From: Candidatus Moraniibacteriota bacterium
GTDB taxonomy: Bacteria; Patescibacteriota; Minisyncoccia; Moranbacterales; UBA2206
DNA: 64,000 nt
Direction: 5' to 3'
Assembly (NCBI GenBank): GCA_049303905.1
Contig: JBAQNP010000005.1
Coordinates: forward strand, 61,655-125,654
A model generated the notes under the pieces. It worked only from the letters and a program-made list of their open reading frames with translations, searched no databases and had not been told where the DNA came from. Below are positions 50,067 through 62,044 of the stretch, one piece after another; the first letter of the stretch is position 1; each line of letters starts with the position of its first letter. A program made the position numbers and the translations under genes.

Positions 50067-51161
50067 TTATTTGTGAAGTTTCCGCATTTCTCTAAATTTC
50101 AGGACAACTTCACTTTCTGATTTGTGACGGAAGGCATAAGGACTTCTTTTTCGCGTCACTGAGAAAAAAGCTCCCATCATACCTTGAATGATTTCAAAAG
50201 GTATGAGACCTTTTTCATAAAGATGTATTGCCCCATTAATTTTCCTGAGATAATTTCTGGGCAAAAAAGTTTCTCCTCTAAATTTCAATCCCACGCCGGT
50301 GATTATAATCTGGCGTTTCTCTGCCAAATCAATTACGGCTGATTTTTTGTGACTGATTTGCAGTCCGGCATCAATAATTACTTGGCGAATTTTTTTTCGC
50401 ACTCTTTTTCCGATTGGCTTCAAAGAAGAAAAAGCCAAATCATCAAGAAATCTGGTAAAACGAAGATCATTTTTTTCACAAATCTCCGCTAATGGCGCAT
50501 CTAATAAATACGCCGCAAAGATGTTTGCTAGATCTACTGAAGCTGGCGCGCCGGTTTTTAGTCCCGTGCCAGACTTCAAGAAGCAATATTTTTTCAAGAA
50601 TTTGGAGAGTTTTTTTCTATTTTCCCAAGTTGTCATACAGAGAATATCCAGTAGTCTATCTCCGTCAATGTTATTATAGAAGCTATGAATATCGAGGAGA
50701 TAAAAATATCTTCCGTTCTTATGCTTTTCTACATTTCTCAGTGGACTCCAGCCGGTGATTCCACCGGTGGCAAAACGAAGGCCAACTGGAAGCTCGTTTA
50801 TCAATTCTTTACTTCTCAGAACATTTCGAACAAATGCGCGATGAATTAAGCGCATAGTGAGGTTTGGATTGTGGATAGTCCGAAATTTACGGGTATTTTT
50901 TATTGGATTGAAATCTTCCAACTTATATACTCTGAATTTCGGAGACTGAAAAGTGAAAAAACAGAAATAAAAGTAGAAAATCCAAAAATTCAAACTTGCT
51001 TGAATTTCCTTGACTTCGAAATCCGGTTTTTTTCCGAAAAAAATCTGATATAAATTGTCAAATAACATAGGTCGCCCCCTTATTATTGAATGTTTTTTTA
51101 TTTGTTTTAGTTTAAAGCAGAATAGCAGAACAGGGCATAATTGGCAAGTTTTTGGCGACAA
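50067..51161 (-). CDS. Retron-type reverse transcriptase
   Basis: RT motif 1 RKFRTIHNP. Motif 2 TGGITGWSPLRNVEKH (the retron NAxxH). Motif 3 YFYLLDIHSFY. Motif 4 GLKTGAPASVDLANIF. Motif 5 FLDDLAFS (the YADD-equivalent). The retron VTG motif appears as IITGVG. The true start may be Met32. Confidence 0.7.
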   Translation of the reverse strand: MSPKTCQLCPVLLFCFKLKQIKKHSIIRGRPMLFDNLYQIFFGKKPDFEVKEIQASLNFWIFYFYFCFFTFQSPKFRVYKLEDFNPIKNTRKFRTIHNPNLTMRLIHRAFVRNVLRSKELINELPVGLRFATGGITGWSPLRNVEKHKNGRYFYLLDIHSFYNNIDGDRLLDILCMTTWENRKKLSKFLKKYCFLKSGTGLKTGAPASVDLANIFAAYLLDAPLAEICEKNDLRFTRFLDDLAFSSLKPIGKRVRKKIRQVIIDAGLQISHKKSAVIDLAEKRQIIITGVGLKFRGETFLPRNYLRKINGAIHLYEKGLIPFEIIQGMMGAFFSVTRKRSPYAFRHKSESEVVLKFREMRKLHK

Positions 51162-51190: not shown

Positions 51191-54100
51191 ATGCATGAAA
51201 TATTGGAAAAACTTAATGCTCCGCAAAGAGAGGCGGTGACGACGACGGAAGGGCCGGTTCTCATTATTGCGGGGGCAGGATCGGGGAAAACGCGCGCACT
51301 AACACACAGGGTGGCGTATTTGATTTGTGAAAAAAAGATTAGTCCTCGAAGAATTTTGGCGGTGACTTTTACTAATAAAGCGGCGGGAGAGATGAAGGAA
51401 AGGATTAGGGAATTACTTAGTGCAAATACGCGAATTGATGCGAATGATGCGAATGACCTCACCCCCAGCCCCTCTCCTTATAAAGGAGAGGGTAGCCAAT
51501 ATGATATGCCAACAGTCGGAACTTTTCATTCTATCTGCGTGAGGATTTTGCGTCATGAGATTGAGAAGATGGGATATAAAAGCTCTTTTAATATTTTTGA
51601 TGATCAAGATCAGCTGGCTCTCATGAAAAAAGTGATGAAAGAAATGGAAATTAACACCGATCAATTCAAACCAAAAGCAATTCTTGGCGCAATTTCCAAT
51701 GCGAAAAATGAACTCAAGAGTGCGGAGGAATTTTTAGCAGGAGTGGGTGGATATTTTGAAGAGATGGTGGCCAAGATTTATCTGAACTATCAAAAAAAAT
51801 TGAAAGATCAAGGTGCTTTGGATTTTGATGATATCTTGATGATTATAGTGAAGCTTTTCCAAAAGTTTCCAGAAGTTTTGGAAAAGTATCAGAATTTTTT
51901 TCAGTATATTATGGTAGACGAATATCAAGATACTAACCGCGCGCAATATTTGTTGGTAAAATTGTTGTCGGAAAAATATAAAAATTTGTGTGTGGTGGGT
52001 GATGATTGGCAATGTTTTCCGAGGGGAATAAAAATATCAGTGGATGACAAAAAAACCAAAAATATTGAGAAAATAAGAAAAGGAGATGCAATTATGTCAG
52101 CTTCAGGGCAAGGTGAGATTTGCCCTCAATCGATAGAAAGAAATAAAAAATCTAAATTCAAGGGAGAGCTAATAAAAATCACGACAAAATCAGGTAAAAG
52201 TTTAATGGCTACACCTAACCATATTCTTTTTTCTAAATTATCTTTAAGCGCAAATATATTCTATGTATATTTAATGTATAAAAAAGAGATAGGATATCGT
52301 ATTGGAATGGTAAAGGGAATTAGGATAGTTAAATCAAATGGACTTAATGCGGGATTAAATGTCAGGGCTAATCAAGAACGAGCAGACAGGATGTGGATTT
52401 TGAAAATTTGCCAGACAAAAACCCAAGCGCAATACTGGGAGCAATATCTTGGATTTTTTTATGGTATTCCGACGTTGGTTTTTATTGCGGGCAGTGGAAG
52501 AAAAATGAAATTTGAGCAAAAATATTTGGATGATTTGTATAAAAATATTAATACCTTAGAAAGAGTTAAGAAAATATTTTTAGATTTTAATTTAAATTTT
52601 GATTATCCTCATCATATTCCGCAATCAACCATAAGAAGTGGAATAAAAAGAGTTTCTGTTAACTTTACTTTATTTAGCGATCGCAGAAAAGGAATTTCAA
52701 TTAGCAATTGGGGAAGACACAGGATAAGCATTAATTCGAATGACAAAGAGACTAAAAAAATACTAGAGTTAGCTGGTTTCAAAACGAGAAAAGGAAAGAA
52801 GAATGATTGGCGATTGGAAATTTCTAGCAGAAAATATGAGGAAATGGAAAAGGTTCTAAATAAAATTATAAAAATTATTCCTAATATAGTGGTCACCAAA
52901 AGAGCGCTCTTAGCGGGAGGCAAAAGATTTTATTTTCAACCGGCGGGACATATCAGAGAAACAATGCTCGTGCCTATTTTAGAAAAAGGAAAAATTATTG
53001 AAGAGGAGATAGAAAAAGTTGAAAAAATAAAATATGCTGGTCCGGTTTATGATTTAGATGTAGCAAATGTGCATAATTATATTGCAAATAATTTTGTGGT
53101 GCATAATTCAATTTATGGATGGCGAGGAGCCAATATTCAAAATATTTTAGATTTTGAAAAAGATTATCCGCAGGCGCGCGTGATTAAGTTGGAGCAGAAT
53201 TATCGCTCGACGCAAAATATTTTAGACGCGGCTTATGGTGTGATTTCAAAAAACATTAATCGCAAGGACAAAAAAATTTGGACGGATAATCAAAGCGGGC
53301 ATCTTCTTTCTAGTTTTGAAGCAGAAGATGAAAAAGAAGAAGCACAGTTTATTGTGGATGAGATAAAAAAAATATGTCATCCTGAACTTGTTTCAAAATC
53401 TAATGAGGAGATTCCGGATCAAGTCCGGAATGACAAATACAGATTTTCCGATTTTGTAGTTCTCTATCGAACCAATGCGCAGTCTCGAATGATTGAAGAA
53501 GCGATGCTTCGAAATTCTATTCCGTACCGAATTATTGGCGGGGTAAAATTCTACCAAAGAAAAGAAATTAAAGATGTGATTGCATATCTGCGAGTGATTA
53601 ATAATTTTAATGATGAAACTTCGCTGGAACGAATTATTAATGAACCGAAGCGAGGGATAGGCGATGTAACACTGAGCAAGTGGATAAAAATAGCTCGATT
53701 AGATGAAAATAATTTAATAGATGCAGGGATTAAAATTAAACAGTTGCAAGATACAAAATACAAGATACAAGATACAAGACTGGATGCAATTGTGAAATTT
53801 TGCGAATTCATTCAGAGAATGTCAGAGCTCAAAGAAAAATTATCTCTTACTGATTTTATCCAAAAAATTTATAGTGAATCGGGGTATGAAAGATTTCTTA
53901 TGGACGGAACTGAAGAGGGAGAAATGAGAAATGAAAATGTTAGAGAGCTTCTCACTGTTGCAAAGAAATATGACGAGTATGAACCAATGGAAAGTTTGAA
54001 ATTATTTTTAGAAGAAGTAGCTTTGGTTTCTGACACGGATAATATTGATCAAGCTGTTGATGCGGTACATCTTATGACACTTCACAGTGCTAAAGGTTTA

Positions 54101-54577
54101 GAATTTAAAATTGTTTTTATTGCTGGGCTCGAAGAAGGGATTTTGCCACATTCCAGAAGTATGCTTAGCGACTCTGAAATGGAAGAAGAGAGACGCCTGA
54201 TGTATGTGGGAATCACGCGCGCTATGGAAAAAGTCTATTTGCTTTTTACTCGTATGCGAAATATTTTTGGTTCCACACAGATTAATGCTTCTTCAAGATT
54301 TTTGGAAGATGTGCCGGAGCATCTACTTGAGTCATATAACATGAAGCATGAAACATGTAACAAAAAACAAAGTGATAAGATTAGGCAAGGTTCGGAAAAA
54401 AATGCTTCATGCTTCATGCTTCATGCTTCATGTTTTAAGGACGGTGATCGGGTGCGACATGAGGTTTTTGGTGATGGCTTGATTGTTGCGAGTCAAGGCG
54501 ACATAATCACCGTCGCCTTTTCCAAGGCGGGACTCAAAAAACTTTCTACTTCAATCGCACACTTAGAAAAAATATAA
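51191..54577 (+). CDS. pcrA: ATP-dependent DNA helicase PcrA/UvrD, interrupted by an intein and carrying an in-frame palindromic insertion
   Basis: Walker A AGAGSGKTR. Motifs Ia, II (DEYQD) and IV-VI are present. Motif III reads VVGDDWQ|intein|SIYGWRGA. The N-terminal insert TPSPSPYKGEG is encoded by the palindromic element. Confidence 0.85.
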   Translation: MHEILEKLNAPQREAVTTTEGPVLIIAGAGSGKTRALTHRVAYLICEKKISPRRILAVTFTNKAAGEMKERIRELLSANTRIDANDANDLTPSPSPYKGEGSQYDMPTVGTFHSICVRILRHEIEKMGYKSSFNIFDDQDQLALMKKVMKEMEINTDQFKPKAILGAISNAKNELKSAEEFLAGVGGYFEEMVAKIYLNYQKKLKDQGALDFDDILMIIVKLFQKFPEVLEKYQNFFQYIMVDEYQDTNRAQYLLVKLLSEKYKNLCVVGDDWQCFPRGIKISVDDKKTKNIEKIRKGDAIMSASGQGEICPQSIERNKKSKFKGELIKITTKSGKSLMATPNHILFSKLSLSANIFYVYLMYKKEIGYRIGMVKGIRIVKSNGLNAGLNVRANQERADRMWILKICQTKTQAQYWEQYLGFFYGIPTLVFIAGSGRKMKFEQKYLDDLYKNINTLERVKKIFLDFNLNFDYPHHIPQSTIRSGIKRVSVNFTLFSDRRKGISISNWGRHRISINSNDKETKKILELAGFKTRKGKKNDWRLEISSRKYEEMEKVLNKIIKIIPNIVVTKRALLAGGKRFYFQPAGHIRETMLVPILEKGKIIEEEIEKVEKIKYAGPVYDLDVANVHNYIANNFVVHNSIYGWRGANIQNILDFEKDYPQARVIKLEQNYRSTQNILDAAYGVISKNINRKDKKIWTDNQSGHLLSSFEAEDEKEEAQFIVDEIKKICHPELVSKSNEEIPDQVRNDKYRFSDFVVLYRTNAQSRMIEEAMLRNSIPYRIIGGVKFYQRKEIKDVIAYLRVINNFNDETSLERIINEPKRGIGDVTLSKWIKIARLDENNLIDAGIKIKQLQDTKYKIQDTRLDAIVKFCEFIQRMSELKEKLSLTDFIQKIYSESGYERFLMDGTEEGEMRNENVRELLTVAKKYDEYEPMESLKLFLEEVALVSDTDNIDQAVDAVHLMTLHSAKGLEFKIVFIAGLEEGILPHSRSMLSDSEMEEERRLMYVGITRAMEKVYLLFTRMRNIFGSTQINASSRFLEDVPEHLLESYNMKHETCNKKQSDKIRQGSEKNASCFMLHASCFKDGDRVRHEVFGDGLIVASQGDIITVAFSKAGLKKLSTSIAHLEKI
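52013..53107 (+). mobile_element. Intein (365 aa) inside pcrA motif III, with a central endonuclease-like region
   Basis: Starts at Cys1 (CFPRG…). Block B TPNH. C-terminal blocks VYDLDVANVHNYIANNFVVHN followed by +1 Ser. Excision restores the canonical GDDxQSIYGWRGA. Confidence 0.8.
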
Positions 54578-56026: not shown

Positions 56027-57013
56027 ATGTCGCATAATATGAATATTAGAGATTATAAAACTCAATTTTTGGAATATTTGGAAGTGGAAAAACAGCGTTC
56101 ACCTAAAACGATTGAAAATTATGATCGTTATTTGGAAAAATTCTTAGTTTGGGCAAAAATTAGTGATCCAAAGGGTATTAATGATGATCTAATCCGAAGT
56201 TTTCGCCTCTATCTTAATCGATTTCAAAATGAAAAAGGCCAAAATATCAAGAGAATCACGCAAAATTATTACATTATTGCTATTCGATGTTTTTTAAAGT
56301 ATCTAGCCAAGAGAGACGTCAAAACTTTGCAGGCGGAAAAGGTAGAAATTGGAAAAACGCCAGAGCGAGAGGTGGATTTCTTGGAAAATAGCGAAGTGGA
56401 GAGGATTTTGGAGTCAGCTGGTGGGGTAAGCTTCAAATCTTTGCGTGATCGAGCCATTATGGAATTGCTTTTCTCAGCTGGACTTCGGGTTTCGGAATTA
56501 ACTAGCATTAATCGGGATAAATTGAATCTGAAAAGTGGAGAATTAAGTGTGCGAGGCAAAGGCAATAAGATTCGGGTAGTTTTTATCTCAGACACAGCTT
56601 CGGCGTCTCTTCGAGAATATCTCAAGAAAAGGGAAGATATTGATCCAGCTTTATTTGTGCGAGATGTGAAAGGTTTGGCGAAATTTAAGAAAAAAAATAA
56701 ATCCGCTGTAGAGACGAGGCAGTGCCTCGTCTCTATCAAGGATGATAATAATCTCCGCCTCACTCCGCGTTCTATTCAGCGAATTGTGAAATACTATGCT
56801 CTAAAGGCCGGAATCGTAAAAGATGTCCATCCGCATACCTTGCGTCATTCTTTTGCTACGGATCTTTTGATGAATGGAGCGGATATTCGCTCTGTTCAAG
56901 CAATGCTTGGCCATGCTTCGATCAATACTACTCAAATTTATACTCATGTTACCAATCCCCATCTCAAAGAGGTCCATCAGGCCTTCCATGCCAGAAGAAG
57001 GAAAAAAGATTGA
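56027..57013 (+). CDS. xerD: Tyrosine site-specific recombinase of the XerC/XerD family, with a palindromic in-frame insert
   Basis: Catalytic box HPHTLRHSFATDLLMNGADIRSVQAMLGHASINTTQIYTHV. The N-terminal SAM-like domain is present. A 27-bp perfect palindrome at 56709-56735 encodes AVETRQCLV. Confidence 0.8.
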   Translation: MSHNMNIRDYKTQFLEYLEVEKQRSPKTIENYDRYLEKFLVWAKISDPKGINDDLIRSFRLYLNRFQNEKGQNIKRITQNYYIIAIRCFLKYLAKRDVKTLQAEKVEIGKTPEREVDFLENSEVERILESAGGVSFKSLRDRAIMELLFSAGLRVSELTSINRDKLNLKSGELSVRGKGNKIRVVFISDTASASLREYLKKREDIDPALFVRDVKGLAKFKKKNKSAVETRQCLVSIKDDNNLRLTPRSIQRIVKYYALKAGIVKDVHPHTLRHSFATDLLMNGADIRSVQAMLGHASINTTQIYTHVTNPHLKEVHQAFHARRRKKD

Positions 57014-57052
57014 CCAATCTGCTTTTTTGAAATAGTATTAGAGATGTTATGC

Positions 57053-57126
57053 GGGTGTTTAGCTCAGCTGGTTAGAGCGTCACATTGACATTGTGGAGGT
57101 CACTGGTTCGAGTCCAGTAATACCCA
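57053..57126 (+). tRNA. tRNA-Val (anticodon GAC)
   Basis: Manual cloverleaf fold. Acceptor GGGTGTT/AATACCC (one G·U pair). D arm GCTC/GAGC. Anticodon arm TCACA-TTGACAT-TGTGG. T arm ACTGG-TTCGAGT-CCAGT. Confidence 0.7.
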
Positions 57127-57214
57127 CAGCATAAGAAATATGATAGAGTTAAAGAGTCGAGAAAGTACATTTAAAAAGATAATGGGACCATAGCTCAGTG
57201 GTAGAGCGCGCGGC

Positions 57215-57589
57215 TCAAGTAAATAATTCTAAACTGTGTTTTGGATGATGGAGTTCGGCATGACAATTGTTGCAAACAAGGATGCACTTTTTAAGTTCGG
57301 TATCAATCCAGGAAAGTTTGCGATTTGACAGGGATCTGATATCAAGCTGGAAATGTTTTTCTTTTGGATTTTTGTGATGAAAAGTCAAGGCGGCATAATT
57401 TTTTTTATACCCGCAGACACAGCAACATCCTCCAAGTTTTTTCACACAACTAATCTTTCTCTTCCAGCCTCGGGCTTGTTGAAGATGATAGGATTGGTTG
57501 ACGCTATTTTTGCAAGTGGGAGAACAATAACGTGTTTGTCTGCCCCCAAGAGGGTGATTACAAACTACGCAGGTTATGATTTTATTCAT
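57215..57589 (-). CDS. HNH endonuclease (homing-endonuclease-like), encoded antisense inside the tRNA intron
   Basis: Zn-ribbon CVVCNH…YCSPTC. HNH core CCCVCGY…LTFHHKNP…KH…N…LVCNNCHAELHH. Confidence 0.6.
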   Translation of the reverse strand: MNKIITCVVCNHPLGGRQTRYCSPTCKNSVNQSYHLQQARGWKRKISCVKKLGGCCCVCGYKKNYAALTFHHKNPKEKHFQLDIRSLSNRKLSWIDTELKKCILVCNNCHAELHHPKHSLELFT

Positions 57590-57838
57590 AATCTAATTAT
57601 AACACAAAATGAATAATTGCAACAGGGCTGTTTGAGAAGTAATTTTCAAATGAATTCTGTCAAATTCGGGGAAATCTTAAGTTTTTATTTTATATAAAAA
57701 AATGACAATCCCGAGCCAAGTCCCGACGCTAAGTCGGGAAAGGTGTAGAGACTAGATGGCAGACATCCCGAGTATTTGGGATGAAGGGATAGTCCAGCTT
57801 ACAAATTCGAAAGAAGTTGCGAAAGCAATAGTGAGATG
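57216..57838 (+). mobile_element. Group I intron (IC3-like, tRNA-intron type) with an antisense HNH ORF
   Basis: The core matches cyanobacterial-type tRNA introns: CAATCCCGAGCCAAGTCC, GGGAAAGGTGTAGAGACTAGATGGCAG, and the P7 pair AGACUA/UAGUCC. It ends in omega-G at 57838. Confidence 0.65.
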
Positions 57839-57884
57839 CATAACCGCTTGGTCGAAGGTTCGAATCCTTCTGGTCCCACAAAAA

Positions 57885-57920
57885 AACCGCCCTGATTAAA
57901 TCTCGGGGCGGTTTTAGATT
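57885..57920. terminator. Rho-independent terminator after the tRNA (ACCGCCC…GGGGCGGTTTT)
   Basis: Read directly. Confidence 0.65.
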
Positions 57921-57950
57921 TCTGGAATAATATAATTTTGTCATGCTGAA

Positions 57951-58015
57951 CTTGTTTCAGCATCTTAATCGTTAGAGATCCTGAAACGAGTTCAGGATGA
58001 CAATCGAAGATTAAT
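57951..58015. repeat. Second copy of the TGTCATGCTGAA…GTTCAGGATGACAA nested-hairpin element
   Basis: It aligns with 46128-46215 minus the GC-rich insert. Confidence 0.75.
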
Positions 58016-61099: not shown

Positions 61100-62044
61100 C
61101 TATATGTTGCATGATATTTGTAGCTTATCATTTTTCTTGGTAATTTTCAATCCCGGGAGTATTACAATCTGAGTCTTGTTTTTCGTGCTTTTTATGATTT
61201 TTATGATTTCTTCGATATTATTGGTACTGATATTTTTCAAGTCTCCCTTTGTATCTTTTATATTATTTCTTAAGACCCTGCGCAAAATTGCCGGATGTAA
61301 TTTTTCTAGTTTTTTAATCTCTAAGCTGTTTGAATTTTTCAAAGCAGTTTTTTCGAGATATTCCGAATCCTCAGAAATAGAAACCAAAGAATCAAAAATA
61401 GTTTCTTTGATCTTTGGGTTGAAATCTTTTTCTAAACTCGGGATGAGTTTGTTTCGGATTTTGTTTCGCAGATATAAGTTTTGTGCATTCGTCTTATCTG
61501 TCATATAGGTCAAATTTCTCTCTTGCAAATACTCTAAAATTTCTTTTCGACTAACGGAAAGCAATGGCCGAATTATTTTTTCATTTTTGAATTTCATAGC
61601 TGTGAGTCCTGACATTCCACTGCCTCGAAGGATGCGCATAAGAAATGTTTCCACTTGGTCGTCAGCGTTGTGTGCCACAGCCACAAAATCGAAATCATAA
61701 TCGACGCGAAGTTTCTCAAAAAAATCATAACGAATGTTGCGTAGATAATTTTCAGAAATATTTTTCTTGGGGATTTCGATGCTTTGCGCAAAAATTTCCA
61801 GATTATATTTTGTCGCCAAATCTTGCACGAATTTTTCGTCCCCCATACTGTCCTTACCGCGCAAATTATAATTGACATGGGCGATGATTAGTTCCAAGGA
61901 ATATTTTTTTTGCAGACGTGAAAAAACATCAAGCAAGCAGACGCTATCCGGCCCACCGGAAACCGCTAGGATTATTTTCGCCTCGCGGTTAAAAAGATTA
62001 TTCTGAAAGATTACATTCTGAACTTTTTTGGTTAAGTTAGGCAT
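61100..62044 (-). CDS. tilS: tRNA(Ile)-lysidine synthetase
   Basis: PP-loop AVSGGPDSVCLLDV, plus the conserved tilS-(hpt)-ftsH neighbourhood. Confidence 0.8.
   Translation of the reverse strand: MPNLTKKVQNVIFQNNLFNREAKIILAVSGGPDSVCLLDVFSRLQKKYSLELIIAHVNYNLRGKDSMGDEKFVQDLATKYNLEIFAQSIEIPKKNISENYLRNIRYDFFEKLRVDYDFDFVAVAHNADDQVETFLMRILRGSGMSGLTAMKFKNEKIIRPLLSVSRKEILEYLQERNLTYMTDKTNAQNLYLRNKIRNKLIPSLEKDFNPKIKETIFDSLVSISEDSEYLEKTALKNSNSLEIKKLEKLHPAILRRVLRNNIKDTKGDLKNISTNNIEEIIKIIKSTKNKTQIVILPGLKITKKNDKLQISCNI

Follow-up and report, generated by a model that had tools for sequence, protein, structure and literature searches.

How can a bacterium obtain a working tRNA from a gene whose two halves lie more than six hundred nucleotides apart, and why does the opposite strand between these halves carry a reading frame of the HNH endonuclease family? 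The question is raised by a locus in a 64,000-nucleotide stretch of contig JBAQNP010000005.1 from a Candidatus Moraniibacteriota bacterium; this whole stretch is referred to here as the window, and positions are numbered within it. The locus is a tRNA(CAU) gene that is interrupted in its anticodon loop by a group I intron, and we consider it very probable that the intron is a mobile element of the IC3 type, inserted between U33 and C34 of tRNA-Ile2(CAU) and carrying an antisense HNH gene in the loop of its P1 helix. Below, we establish the structure of the split gene and of the intron, describe the antisense gene and the distribution of the arrangement, and weigh the alternatives.

The split tRNA(CAU) gene

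The initial annotation of the window described two tRNA halves that are separated by ~623 nt and that give a cloverleaf with a CUCAUAA anticodon loop when joined. Both halves are present, with positions 57216-57838 between them: the 5' exon GGGACCATAGCTCAGTGGTAGAGCGCGCGGCT (57184-57215) terminates in ...GCGCGGCU, and the 3' exon CATAACCGCTTGGTCGAAGGTTCGAATCCTTCTGGTCCCA (57839-57878) reads CAUAACCGC...UGGUCCCA. ARAGORN reproduces the proposed structure, folding the joined exons into a standard cloverleaf of 72 nt with the anticodon CAU in the loop CUCAUAA. The minimum free energy fold of the spliced tRNA is not a cloverleaf, which we have not weighed against the tRNA, thermodynamic folding of single tRNAs being unreliable.

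When ARAGORN is run on the window without its intron mode, only tRNA-Val(GAC) at 57053-57127 is found and the split tRNA(CAU) gene is missed; in intron mode, a single gene at 57184..57879 with an intron of 623 nt is reported. This mode presumes a 37/38 intron and sets the boundary 3 nt too far 3', and the anticodons that it proposes (Leu/Ser/Pro) are false; the boundaries used here follow instead from the rules for group I introns and from comparison with relatives. By itself, the window sequence leaves three possible junctions within 2 nt (after U33, C34 or A35), with CA present at both ends. The junction is placed at U33/C34 because two relatives remove the CA-repeat ambiguity: locus L001 reads ...GGCT/TAAGTAAT...GAGATG/CATAACC and locus L004 reads ...GGCT/CGAAAAG... 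(slashes mark junctions). The same boundaries recur in 44 of 44 distinct homologous intron-bearing genes, in which the 5' exon ends in CGGCU, the intron ends in G and the 3' exon starts with CAUAAC. The pairing of tRNA-Val and tRNA(CAU) genes is also present in syntenic relatives, and the tRNA-Val(GAC) and the tRNA(CAU) precursor are probably co-transcribed; the hairpin that follows tRNA(CAU) is likely an intrinsic terminator, possibly a bidirectional one.

A group I intron with an IC3-like core

The Rfam model Intron_gpI (RF00028), which had been proposed as a check on the locus, matches 57605-57819 (+) over the full model (1-253) with 81.7 bits (gathering score 50, E 3.3e-19), and the introns of relatives score 68-83 bits with the same model. 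The core strings, the P7 pairing and the terminal guanosine (57838) named in the initial annotation were all found. To write out the P1-P9 fold, which the annotation also called for, the ribozyme sequences of the window and of 34 relatives (35 introns) were aligned from the guide sequence to the 3' splice site, and the 52 pairs of P2-P9b, with P7 as a pseudoknot, were written on the window sequence (Table 1) and then scored over the alignment. Standard pairs occupy 97.5% of the 1,816 pair cells, compensatory changes occur at 33 of the 52 pairs, and none of 500 column shuffles equals the observed values; if the 3' partners are slid by 1-3 columns, pairing falls to 30-49%. P3, P4, P5, P6 and P6a are paired at 96-99%, and P7 is paired at 100% with compensatory changes at two pairs. 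The invariant core positions are all intact in the copy of the window, in which P5 has one A-C mismatch. Covariation over the 35 introns thus backs the fold.

In P1, the exon end GCGGCU pairs with a guide sequence that lies ~410 nt downstream and in which GGGC is invariant in the 35 introns. U33 (57215) forms a U-G wobble at the 5' splice site; this U-G is kept in 28/28 introns, and P1 is 96% paired. Past P1, the order in the 28 introns is a 3x3 internal loop, P1a and a short P1b. P1a, with compensatory changes at 8 of 10 pairs, joins the two ends of the open reading frame (ORF) insert.

A profile built from the 35-intron alignment was scored against the introns in Table S5 of a recent survey (Nakagawa et al. 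2026, mSystems, PMC13011429). It gives 167 bits for the 252-nt intron at 33/34 of the Desulforudis audaxviator tRNA-Ile2, 123 bits for an Acidobacteriota intron at 33/34 of Ile2, 111 bits (110.6) for a Bacteroidota intron at 33/34 of fMet and 74 bits for the Anabaena tRNA-Leu intron, all of which are labelled IC3, compared to 29-36 bits for the IA introns of the survey. These scores agree with the IC3 type proposed initially, and we regard the intron as IC3-like, an assignment made by homology to labelled introns.

Combining the fold with the exon structure, we suggest that (i) the plus-strand precursor would be transcribed, probably together with tRNA-Val(GAC), and the ribozyme would fold, (ii) P1 would form between GCGGCU, with U33 in the wobble, and the guide GGGCUGU, with the P1a stem holding the ends of the large P1 loop together, (iii) the intron, which is predicted to be self-splicing, would be excised by two guanosine-initiated transesterifications, restoring CUCAUAA, and (iv) TilS would convert C34 to lysidine after splicing.

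An antisense HNH gene in the P1 loop

The initial annotation placed an HNH reading frame antisense to the intron. A 124-aa ORF is present on the minus strand at 57215-57589, and its sequence and predicted structure point to a conserved gene of the HNH family that combines a zinc ribbon with an HNH motif. The suggested search with Pfam HNH (PF01844) did not bear this out, the score of the 124-aa ORF being below threshold (13.3 bits vs 21.4, E 0.094); a search of NCBIfam gave no match, the matches to the Pfam PLATZ and Trm112p zinc ribbons are at chance level, and the precomputed Pfam domains are blank for homologues of the ORF. With Pfam subthreshold, the assignment is made because of PHROG matches, conserved motifs and fold matches. 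PHROG 2255, 3106 and 35854, all annotated as HNH endonuclease, match with E-values of 5e-19 (PHROG 2255) to 1e-13, and the best fold matches of the AlphaFold model (predicted local distance difference test score 93.7) are HNH domains and nucleases. A search of 5.8 billion proteins returned 100 homologues, mostly of 120-130 aa. Among 31 aligned sequences with identities as low as 35%, the N-terminal CxxC...C...C ribbon is retained and 19 columns are invariant, including C56, C59, H71, H72, C106, C109, H110 and H114 (CxxC, HH, CxxCH..H); N89 and N108 are conserved at >=90%. The ratio of nonsynonymous to synonymous substitution rates (dN/dS) is 0.08-0.10 against seven relatives, where dS is unsaturated.

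The two ends of the gene are interwoven with the ribozyme. At the 3' end, the stop codon TGA (57217-57215), being the complement of U33 and the first two intron bases, lies across the 5' splice site, an overlap that is also found in most of the 38 homologous introns examined. At the 5' end, the ATG (57589) of the window gene lies 6 nt past a -10-like TATAAT. When the 60 nt that precede the ATG are aligned for 38 introns, a shared order is seen: P2 and the guide, both as reverse complements (the latter as CAGCCC), a TTGACA/TTGCAA-like hexamer, ~15-17 nt, TAnAAT, 6 nt (usually GCAGTT) and the ATG. TAnnnT is found exactly at -12..-7 in 35 of 38 introns, with a mean of 4.8/6 matches to TATAAT, and a Shine-Dalgarno-like sequence is lacking in 34 of 38. 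Read on the plus strand, the -35-like hexamer corresponds to the P1a 3' strand plus internal loop (UGUCAA), which is also present in the Desulforudis intron that has no homing endonuclease gene (HEG); the -10/ATG part lies outside the ribozyme sequence. These features suggest that the HNH transcript is made from a promoter of its own and is leaderless, because the -10 box is only 6 nt before the start codon. Literature searches for a leaderless HEG gave no precedent, with subscription journals sparsely covered so that this absence is not proof.

On this basis we propose that the HNH gene would be read from its own promoter as a leaderless transcript that ends at the stop codon across the 5' splice site. 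The nuclease would most likely cut or nick the intron-less tRNA-Ile2 gene near CGGCU/CAUAACCG, and repair would copy the intron into the cut gene, i.e. homing.

Recurrence of the arrangement and of its parts

In a scan of one genome per species (GTDB), relatives of the ORF turned up in 363 genomes, and the arrangement was assessed in the best 80 of these. In 41 of the 80 (L007-L015, L017, L019-L048 and L054), the ribozyme ends ~35 nt before the start codon of the ORF on the opposite strand; every one of these loci that could be resolved is a tRNA(CAU) gene interrupted at 33/34, so that one intron type, at one tRNA site, carries the ORF in antisense in its P1 loop. The hosts are labelled Moraniibacteriota, Peregrinibacteria, Doudnabacteria, unclassified Patescibacteria, Anaerolineae/Chloroflexota (many), Latescibacteria and Chthonomonadaceae (Armatimonadota). 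Three hosts are labelled Bdellovibrionales, and we suspect that these are mislabelled bins; one of them, L007, is together with the Moraniibacteriota genome L008 the closest to the window by protein identity (81%) among the best 80 of 363. The gene order of the window matches contigs of Moraniibacteriota-type relatives as well, which by itself makes a Moranbacteria-like member of the Patescibacteria the probable source of the window.

At L027 (positions 1027-2408), in an Anaerolineae metagenome-assembled genome (MAG), the intron is 1,307 nt long and is matched by the ribozyme profile in three separated pieces; besides the antisense HNH gene it has further insertions of ~80 and ~625 nt in the P5/P6 region, and the extra insertion may be a second nested element.

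Relatives of the HNH gene are also found outside P1 loops. In a Peribacteria genome (L016) and a Gracilibacteria genome (L018) the gene is free-standing, 1.5-2 kb from a tRNA(CAU) gene with a ribozyme of the same family, and keeps the TATAATGCAGTTATG start, i.e. the TATAATGCAGTT-ATG signature. The tRNA(CAU) gene of L018 is complete and has a HEG-less intron of 250 nt at 33/34, and the L016 locus stops inside the intron so that the 3' part of the intron and the 3' exon are visible; both introns are below the Rfam gathering score and were found by the ribozyme profile instead. In six MAGs of Gammaproteobacteria/Lysobacterales (L049-L051, L055, L065 and L066) a free-standing HNH gene lies divergently ~25-170 nt from a tRNA(CAU) gene with a 226-252-nt group I intron after CAU, at 36/37. 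This layout, with an endonuclease beside an intron-bearing tRNA-Ile2, recalls the proposed free-standing stage of intron invasion.

A further group of HNH relatives, in Patescibacteria/Saccharibacteria (L056, L060, L080) and in Clostridia MAGs (L057-L084), accompanies tRNA-Asn(GUU)-like genes with same-strand group I introns. At some of these loci the ORF is inside the intron (546-609 nt) and at others just downstream of an intron of ~220-250 nt; the Clostridia cases appear to extend beyond the phyla emphasised in the survey (PMC13011429). Viral contigs of IMG/VR contribute 513 relatives, and tRNA genes, often in arrays, lie within 1.5 kb in 71 of the best 80 of them (L111-L190). Two contigs classed as viral, L112 and L115, have the antisense-in-intron tRNA(CAU) arrangement as well. 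In Nostoc sp. FACHB-280 (L053) and in L067 the HNH gene lies within a long tRNA array.

Presence and absence of the intron at orthologous sites

Searching metagenome contigs with the uninterrupted tRNA GGGACCATAGCTCAGYGGTAGAGCNNNCGGCTCATAACCG identified 24 contigs that carry it. Four of these (L100, L095, L099 and L091) have the neighbourhood of the window, with LysM-CHAP, XerC, tRNA-Val(GAC), tRNA(CAU) and a membrane protein of 325 aa; L100 and L095 additionally have a matching FtsH, and a TilS homologue is found in L089, L094, L105 and L107. Identity of these neighbours to those of the window is 64-73% for XerC and 70-81% for FtsH. The same neighbourhood has the intron in L001-L003. In another context, a tRNA cluster of the order Leu-Val-(Ile)-Phe-CAU-Gly, the intron is present in L004-L006 and absent from L088, L101, L103, L106, L108 and L110. 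Orthologous sites thus occur with and without the intron. This presence/absence polymorphism, the spread across phyla and the CGGCU/CAUAACC flanks, which are invariant in 44 genome-derived hosts, jointly form the pattern that homing predicts.

The spacing of the two tRNA genes also differs between these contigs: the Val-CAU spacer is ~300-360 nt in L091, L095, L099 and L100 and 56 nt in the window (57128-57183).

Alternative explanations

The anticodon CAU is shared by isoleucine and methionine tRNAs and does not discriminate between them. The initial annotation had guessed that the gene encodes the lysidine tRNA, and we find Ile2 to be the better-supported identity and quite probably the correct one. 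A search of E. coli genomes with blastn was uninformative as an isotype test, tRNA-Asn being the best match, and was replaced by pairwise comparison with sequences of E. coli ileX and metT that were verified against RefSeq annotation (tRNA-Ile and tRNA-Met, respectively). In this comparison, the window tRNA has an identity of 76.7% with ileX, 63.5% with the elongator gene metT and 54-58% with fMet-type genes. With the Desulforudis gene, assigned to Ile2 by Nakagawa et al., the identity is 79.5%, and the tRNA of the Chloroflexota hosts is 93% identical to the same Desulforudis gene. The anticodon arm of L001, AGGCGGCUCAUAACCGCUUGGUC, differs from that of ileX at the 31:39 pair only. An initiator tRNA is ruled out by G1-C72, C29 and the missing three G-C pairs at 29-31:39-41. 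A gene for TilS, the tRNA-Ile lysidine synthetase, is encoded at 61100-62044, 3.2 kb away and as close as initially noted (~3 kb). That the interrupted gene is instead an elongator tRNA-Met(CAU) is suggested by the ARAGORN label tRNA-Met, by the moderate margin in similarity and by the 4:69 pair, which is A-U in the lineage of the window vs C-G in E. coli and in the Chloroflexota hosts; set against the similarities to ileX and to the Desulforudis gene, this identity is improbable.

Another explanation concerns the HNH gene rather than the tRNA. The gene could be an independent selfish cassette of a promoter and a leaderless ORF that usually resides as a free-standing unit next to tRNA genes, has lodged in a tolerant P1 loop and does not encode the homing enzyme of this intron; other sequences in tRNA genes might then be the target of the nuclease, or it might do no more than nick DNA, and the intron might hardly spread, or do so only by hitch-hiking. 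Such a cassette would account for the free-standing copies with the same TATAATGCAGTTATG start in L016 and L018, for the gammaproteobacterial genes beside tRNA(CAU) with an intron at the other site, 36/37, for the Nostoc gene inside a long tRNA array, as in all8564 (PMC8421152), for the tRNA genes near 71 of the 80 viral loci and for the members of the family that are sense-oriented inside tRNA-Asn 35/36 introns. Yet 41 of the best 80 genomes, from several phyla, have the gene at an identical location and orientation within one type of intron at one tRNA site, the flanks of that site are invariant in 44 hosts, and orthologous loci occur both with and without the intron, a combined pattern that is expected if the enzyme drives the spread of the intron. 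We consider an independent cassette rather unlikely on these grounds, noting that the two views overlap and that a free-standing origin is compatible with present-day homing. That the locus is a decaying relic, i.e. a tRNA pseudogene or a non-splicing intron with a working tRNA elsewhere, would fit the A-C mismatch in P5 and the fact that 64 kb of the genome were seen. The invariant core positions are intact, however, the joined exons fold as a perfect cloverleaf, the full-length ORF retains all catalytic residues and zinc ligands and is under purifying selection, and relatives have tRNA(CAU) at the same syntenic position; a relic is very improbable.

Several observations weigh against a mobile, antisense-encoding intron in tRNA-Ile2, or against parts of this reading. 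The 64 kb that were read leave room for a second, intact tRNA-Ile2 gene elsewhere in the genome. The top blastn match of the spliced tRNA in E. coli genomes is a tRNA-Asn (81%), and the margin in favour of Ile2 is modest. In P1, there are no compensatory changes in 28 introns, the exon strand being invariant, and inspection by eye for a P10 pairing between the 3' exon and the guide region gave at most ~1 bp, so that none is claimed. Regarding the promoter, P1a pairing also constrains the -35-like hexamer and part of the spacer, and their conservation is not independent evidence for a promoter; moreover, a sigma-70 promoter scan that needs a spacer of 16-18 nt gave no minus-strand site in the window, where the spacer is 15 nt, and the signal came to light only in the alignment of the 38 homologues.

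Relation to known introns and implications

The only systematic survey of bacterial tRNA introns, by Nakagawa et al. (PMC13011429), lists 333 introns in 4,934 complete genomes, including HEG-less IC3 introns at 33/34 of Ile2, and the initial statement that bacterial tRNA introns are rare is outdated. Endonuclease genes are found in 12 of the 333. In this survey, Ile2 introns have no endonuclease gene, antisense genes are not mentioned, HNH genes are restricted to tRNA-Asn 35/36 IA introns of Patescibacteria and one Bacteroidota tRNA-Leu intron, Patescibacteria have no tRNA intron of the IC type, and horizontal spread is judged to be limited. HEGs were detected with Pfam at E < 0.01, a rule that would not label the ORF of the window (E 0.094).

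A mobile group I intron in the anticodon loop of a bacterial tRNA is thus already known, as is the ribozyme lineage. HEG-less IC3 introns at 33/34 of tRNA-Ile2(CAU) are present in Acidobacteriota and Desulforudis audaxviator (PMC13011429), and tRNA-Ile2 introns are mentioned for Acidovorax and Burkholderia in the tRNAscan-SE 2.0 paper (PMC8450103). The Acidobacteriota and Desulforudis introns share the tRNA, the 33/34 site and the ribozyme lineage with the window, and also the extended P1-P1a-P1b hairpin, including the ...GAUAUGAC...UGUCAAGGGCUG 3' strand. They differ in that the published Ile2 33/34 introns are 243-252 nt long and have no ORF, whereas the window intron has an antisense cassette of ~390 nt in the P1b loop: the Desulforudis P1b is capped by a short loop (...GAGUCUAAGUCGG-GUUU-CCGAUAUGACUUGGCUGUCAAGGGCUG), and in the window family this loop is replaced by the ORF cassette.

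Two other introns in CAU tRNAs are close in type. The Azoarcus pre-tRNA-Ile(CAU) intron, reportedly described by Reinhold-Hurek and Shub in 1992, is said to be a small IC3 ribozyme of ~205 nt at 36/37 without an ORF; ribozyme and tRNA species are thus similar to those of the window, and the site and the lack of an ORF are different. The gammaproteobacterial loci L049-L055 (36/37) resemble the Azoarcus type. The I-Ssp6803I intron, reportedly described by Bonocora and Shub in 2001, is said to be a mobile IC3 intron at 33/34 of the cyanobacterial tRNA-fMet(CAU) that carries a homing endonuclease. It is, like the window intron, a mobile IC3 element with an endonuclease at 33/34 of a CAU tRNA, and its ribozyme is related, an fMet 33/34 intron scoring 110.6 bits with the profile, but it differs in the initiator tRNA host, the PD-(D/E)XK nuclease and the sense orientation of the gene; introns with PF11645 are listed in PMC13011429.

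The nuclease, in turn, has relatives in other settings. The Patescibacteria tRNA-Asn(GUU) 35/36 introns (Nakagawa et al. 2026) encode the same HNH family (...KCILVCANCH...) in an anticodon-loop intron in the same phylum, but have an IA ribozyme (36 bits), another tRNA and site, and an ORF on the sense strand. Anabaena all8564 is a published free-standing HNH gene in a tRNA gene array (PMC8421152); free-standing copies of the same HNH family sit in Nostoc and viral tRNA arrays, but genes of the all8564 type lie outside introns and the window gene is nested in a ribozyme loop. Antisense endonuclease genes are known in group I introns of eukaryotic nuclear rDNA (His-Cys box; L2066, PMC9548176; review PMC3679873). 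As in the window, these genes lie opposite the ribozyme strand and need transcription signals of their own; they differ in Pol II-type expression, spliceosomal introns and the nuclease family. In our searches of the literature, no bacterial group I intron with an antisense HEG came up, with subscription journals sparsely covered so that this absence is not proof. Phage T4 SegB is a functional analogue of the free-standing HNH endonucleases next to tRNA arrays.

What is new here is the antisense HNH gene in a P1 loop, the apparent leaderless promoter that overlaps a P1 strand, and the range of phyla with this arrangement, Patescibacteria and Chloroflexota among them. A stronger reading, on which we are evenly divided, is that this is the first bacterial family of group I introns with an antisense homing gene, that its cassette borrows P1a as a -35 element and the 5' splice site as a stop codon, that the family captures stages of invasion, and that an IC3 Ile2 intron has been carried across at least four phyla. 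The cassette in this reading would consist of a -10 box, a leaderless ATG and the 124-aa zinc-ribbon/HNH ORF, dropped into the P1b loop. If this is true, it counters the view that bacterial tRNA introns seldom carry endonuclease genes and are seldom transferred. The window locus and at least 40 relatives add to the IC3 introns a lineage that carries an endonuclease gene, is widespread across phyla and includes Patescibacteria, with the arrangement present in dozens of uncultured bacterial lineages. The two strands of a single stretch of DNA would serve different ends, one for a ribozyme helix and the other for promoter elements and the final codons of an ORF, and the free-standing, sense-in-intron and antisense-in-intron copies of one nuclease family would provide a comparison series for the model of endonuclease invasion. 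There is also a practical implication. Annotation would overlook the element because standard tRNA finders skip the split gene and Pfam misses the ORF, and carrier genomes will appear to lack tRNA-Ile2, which is essential for reading AUA.

Feature coordinates and other elements of the window

Table 1. Features of the interrupted tRNA(CAU) gene, its intron and their surroundings, in window coordinates
Feature	Position	Strand	Basis
Weak promoter-like site upstream of tRNA-Val(GAC)	57010-57038
tRNA-Val(GAC), 56 nt upstream of tRNA(CAU), same strand	57053..57127	+
5' exon of tRNA(CAU), positions 1-33, ending at U33	57184..57215	+	ARAGORN cloverleaf of joined exons
P1 5' strand: exon end GCGGCU and first intron base C	57210..57216	+	Duplex prediction
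HNH-family endonuclease gene (predicted), 124 aa, antisense to intron, filling the P1 terminal loop	57215..57589	-	ORF and homologues
Group I intron, 623 nt, IC3-like, tRNA site 33/34, terminal guanosine (omega-G) at 57838	57216..57838	+	Rfam and relatives
P1a 5' strand AAUAAUUC, partner 57611-57618	57222..57229	+	Duplex prediction
Putative HNH gene promoter: -35-like TTGCAA 57622-57617, TG 57604-57603, -10 TATAAT 57601-57596	57596..57622	-
P1a 3' strand GAAUAAUU	57611..57618	+	Duplex prediction
Internal guide sequence GGGCUGU (P1 3' strand)	57625..57631	+	Duplex prediction
P2 hairpin, GUAA tetraloop	57631..57650	+	All 8 pairs covary
P3, 57656-57661 with 57758-57763, enclosing P4, P5, P6 and P6a	57656..57763	+
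P4	57666-57671/57709-57714	+
P5	57674-57676/57704-57706	+
P6	57715-57717/57742-57744	+
P6a	57721-57727/57733-57739	+
P7 pseudoknot, GACUA 57750-57754 with UAGUC 57790-57794, enclosing the P3 3' strand and P8	57750..57794	+
P8	57764-57771/57776-57783	+	All 5 P8 pairs covary
P9, 57798-57802 with 57831-57835	57798..57835	+	Covariation set
P9a, GAAA-capped hairpin	57806-57815	+
P9b, GAAA-capped hairpin	57817-57828	+
3' exon of tRNA(CAU), C34 to discriminator A73, CCA not encoded	57839..57878	+	ARAGORN cloverleaf
Hairpin between A-run and U-run, after tRNA(CAU)	57883..57915	.	Fold -21.3 kcal/mol, z -5.9; inverted repeat
tilS (tRNA-Ile lysidine synthetase), context	61100..62044	-	Pfam PP-loop; TIGR02432 193.6 bits vs 93.6

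Just past the tRNA terminator, a motif of ~21 nt, GTCATSCTGAACTYGTTTCAG, is present in two inverted copies that are 20 nt apart (57940-58001). A third copy at 53376-53396 lies within the helicase/intein ORF described below; no copy is expected by chance, and the motif may be a small repeat element.

Two further genes of the window deserve mention. A UvrD/PcrA-type helicase of 1,128 aa (51191-54577, +) contains an intein (Pfam Intein_splicing and Hint, residues ~273-639), and its orthologue in the syntenic L001-L003 is 741 aa long; the intein looks like a second mobile element that is present in the window and absent from L001-L003. Next to it, a reverse transcriptase of 364 aa (50067-51161, -; Pfam RVT_1), for which the best NCBIfam match is the retron St85-family reverse transcriptase (E 1e-31, below the cut-off), is possibly of the retron or defence type.

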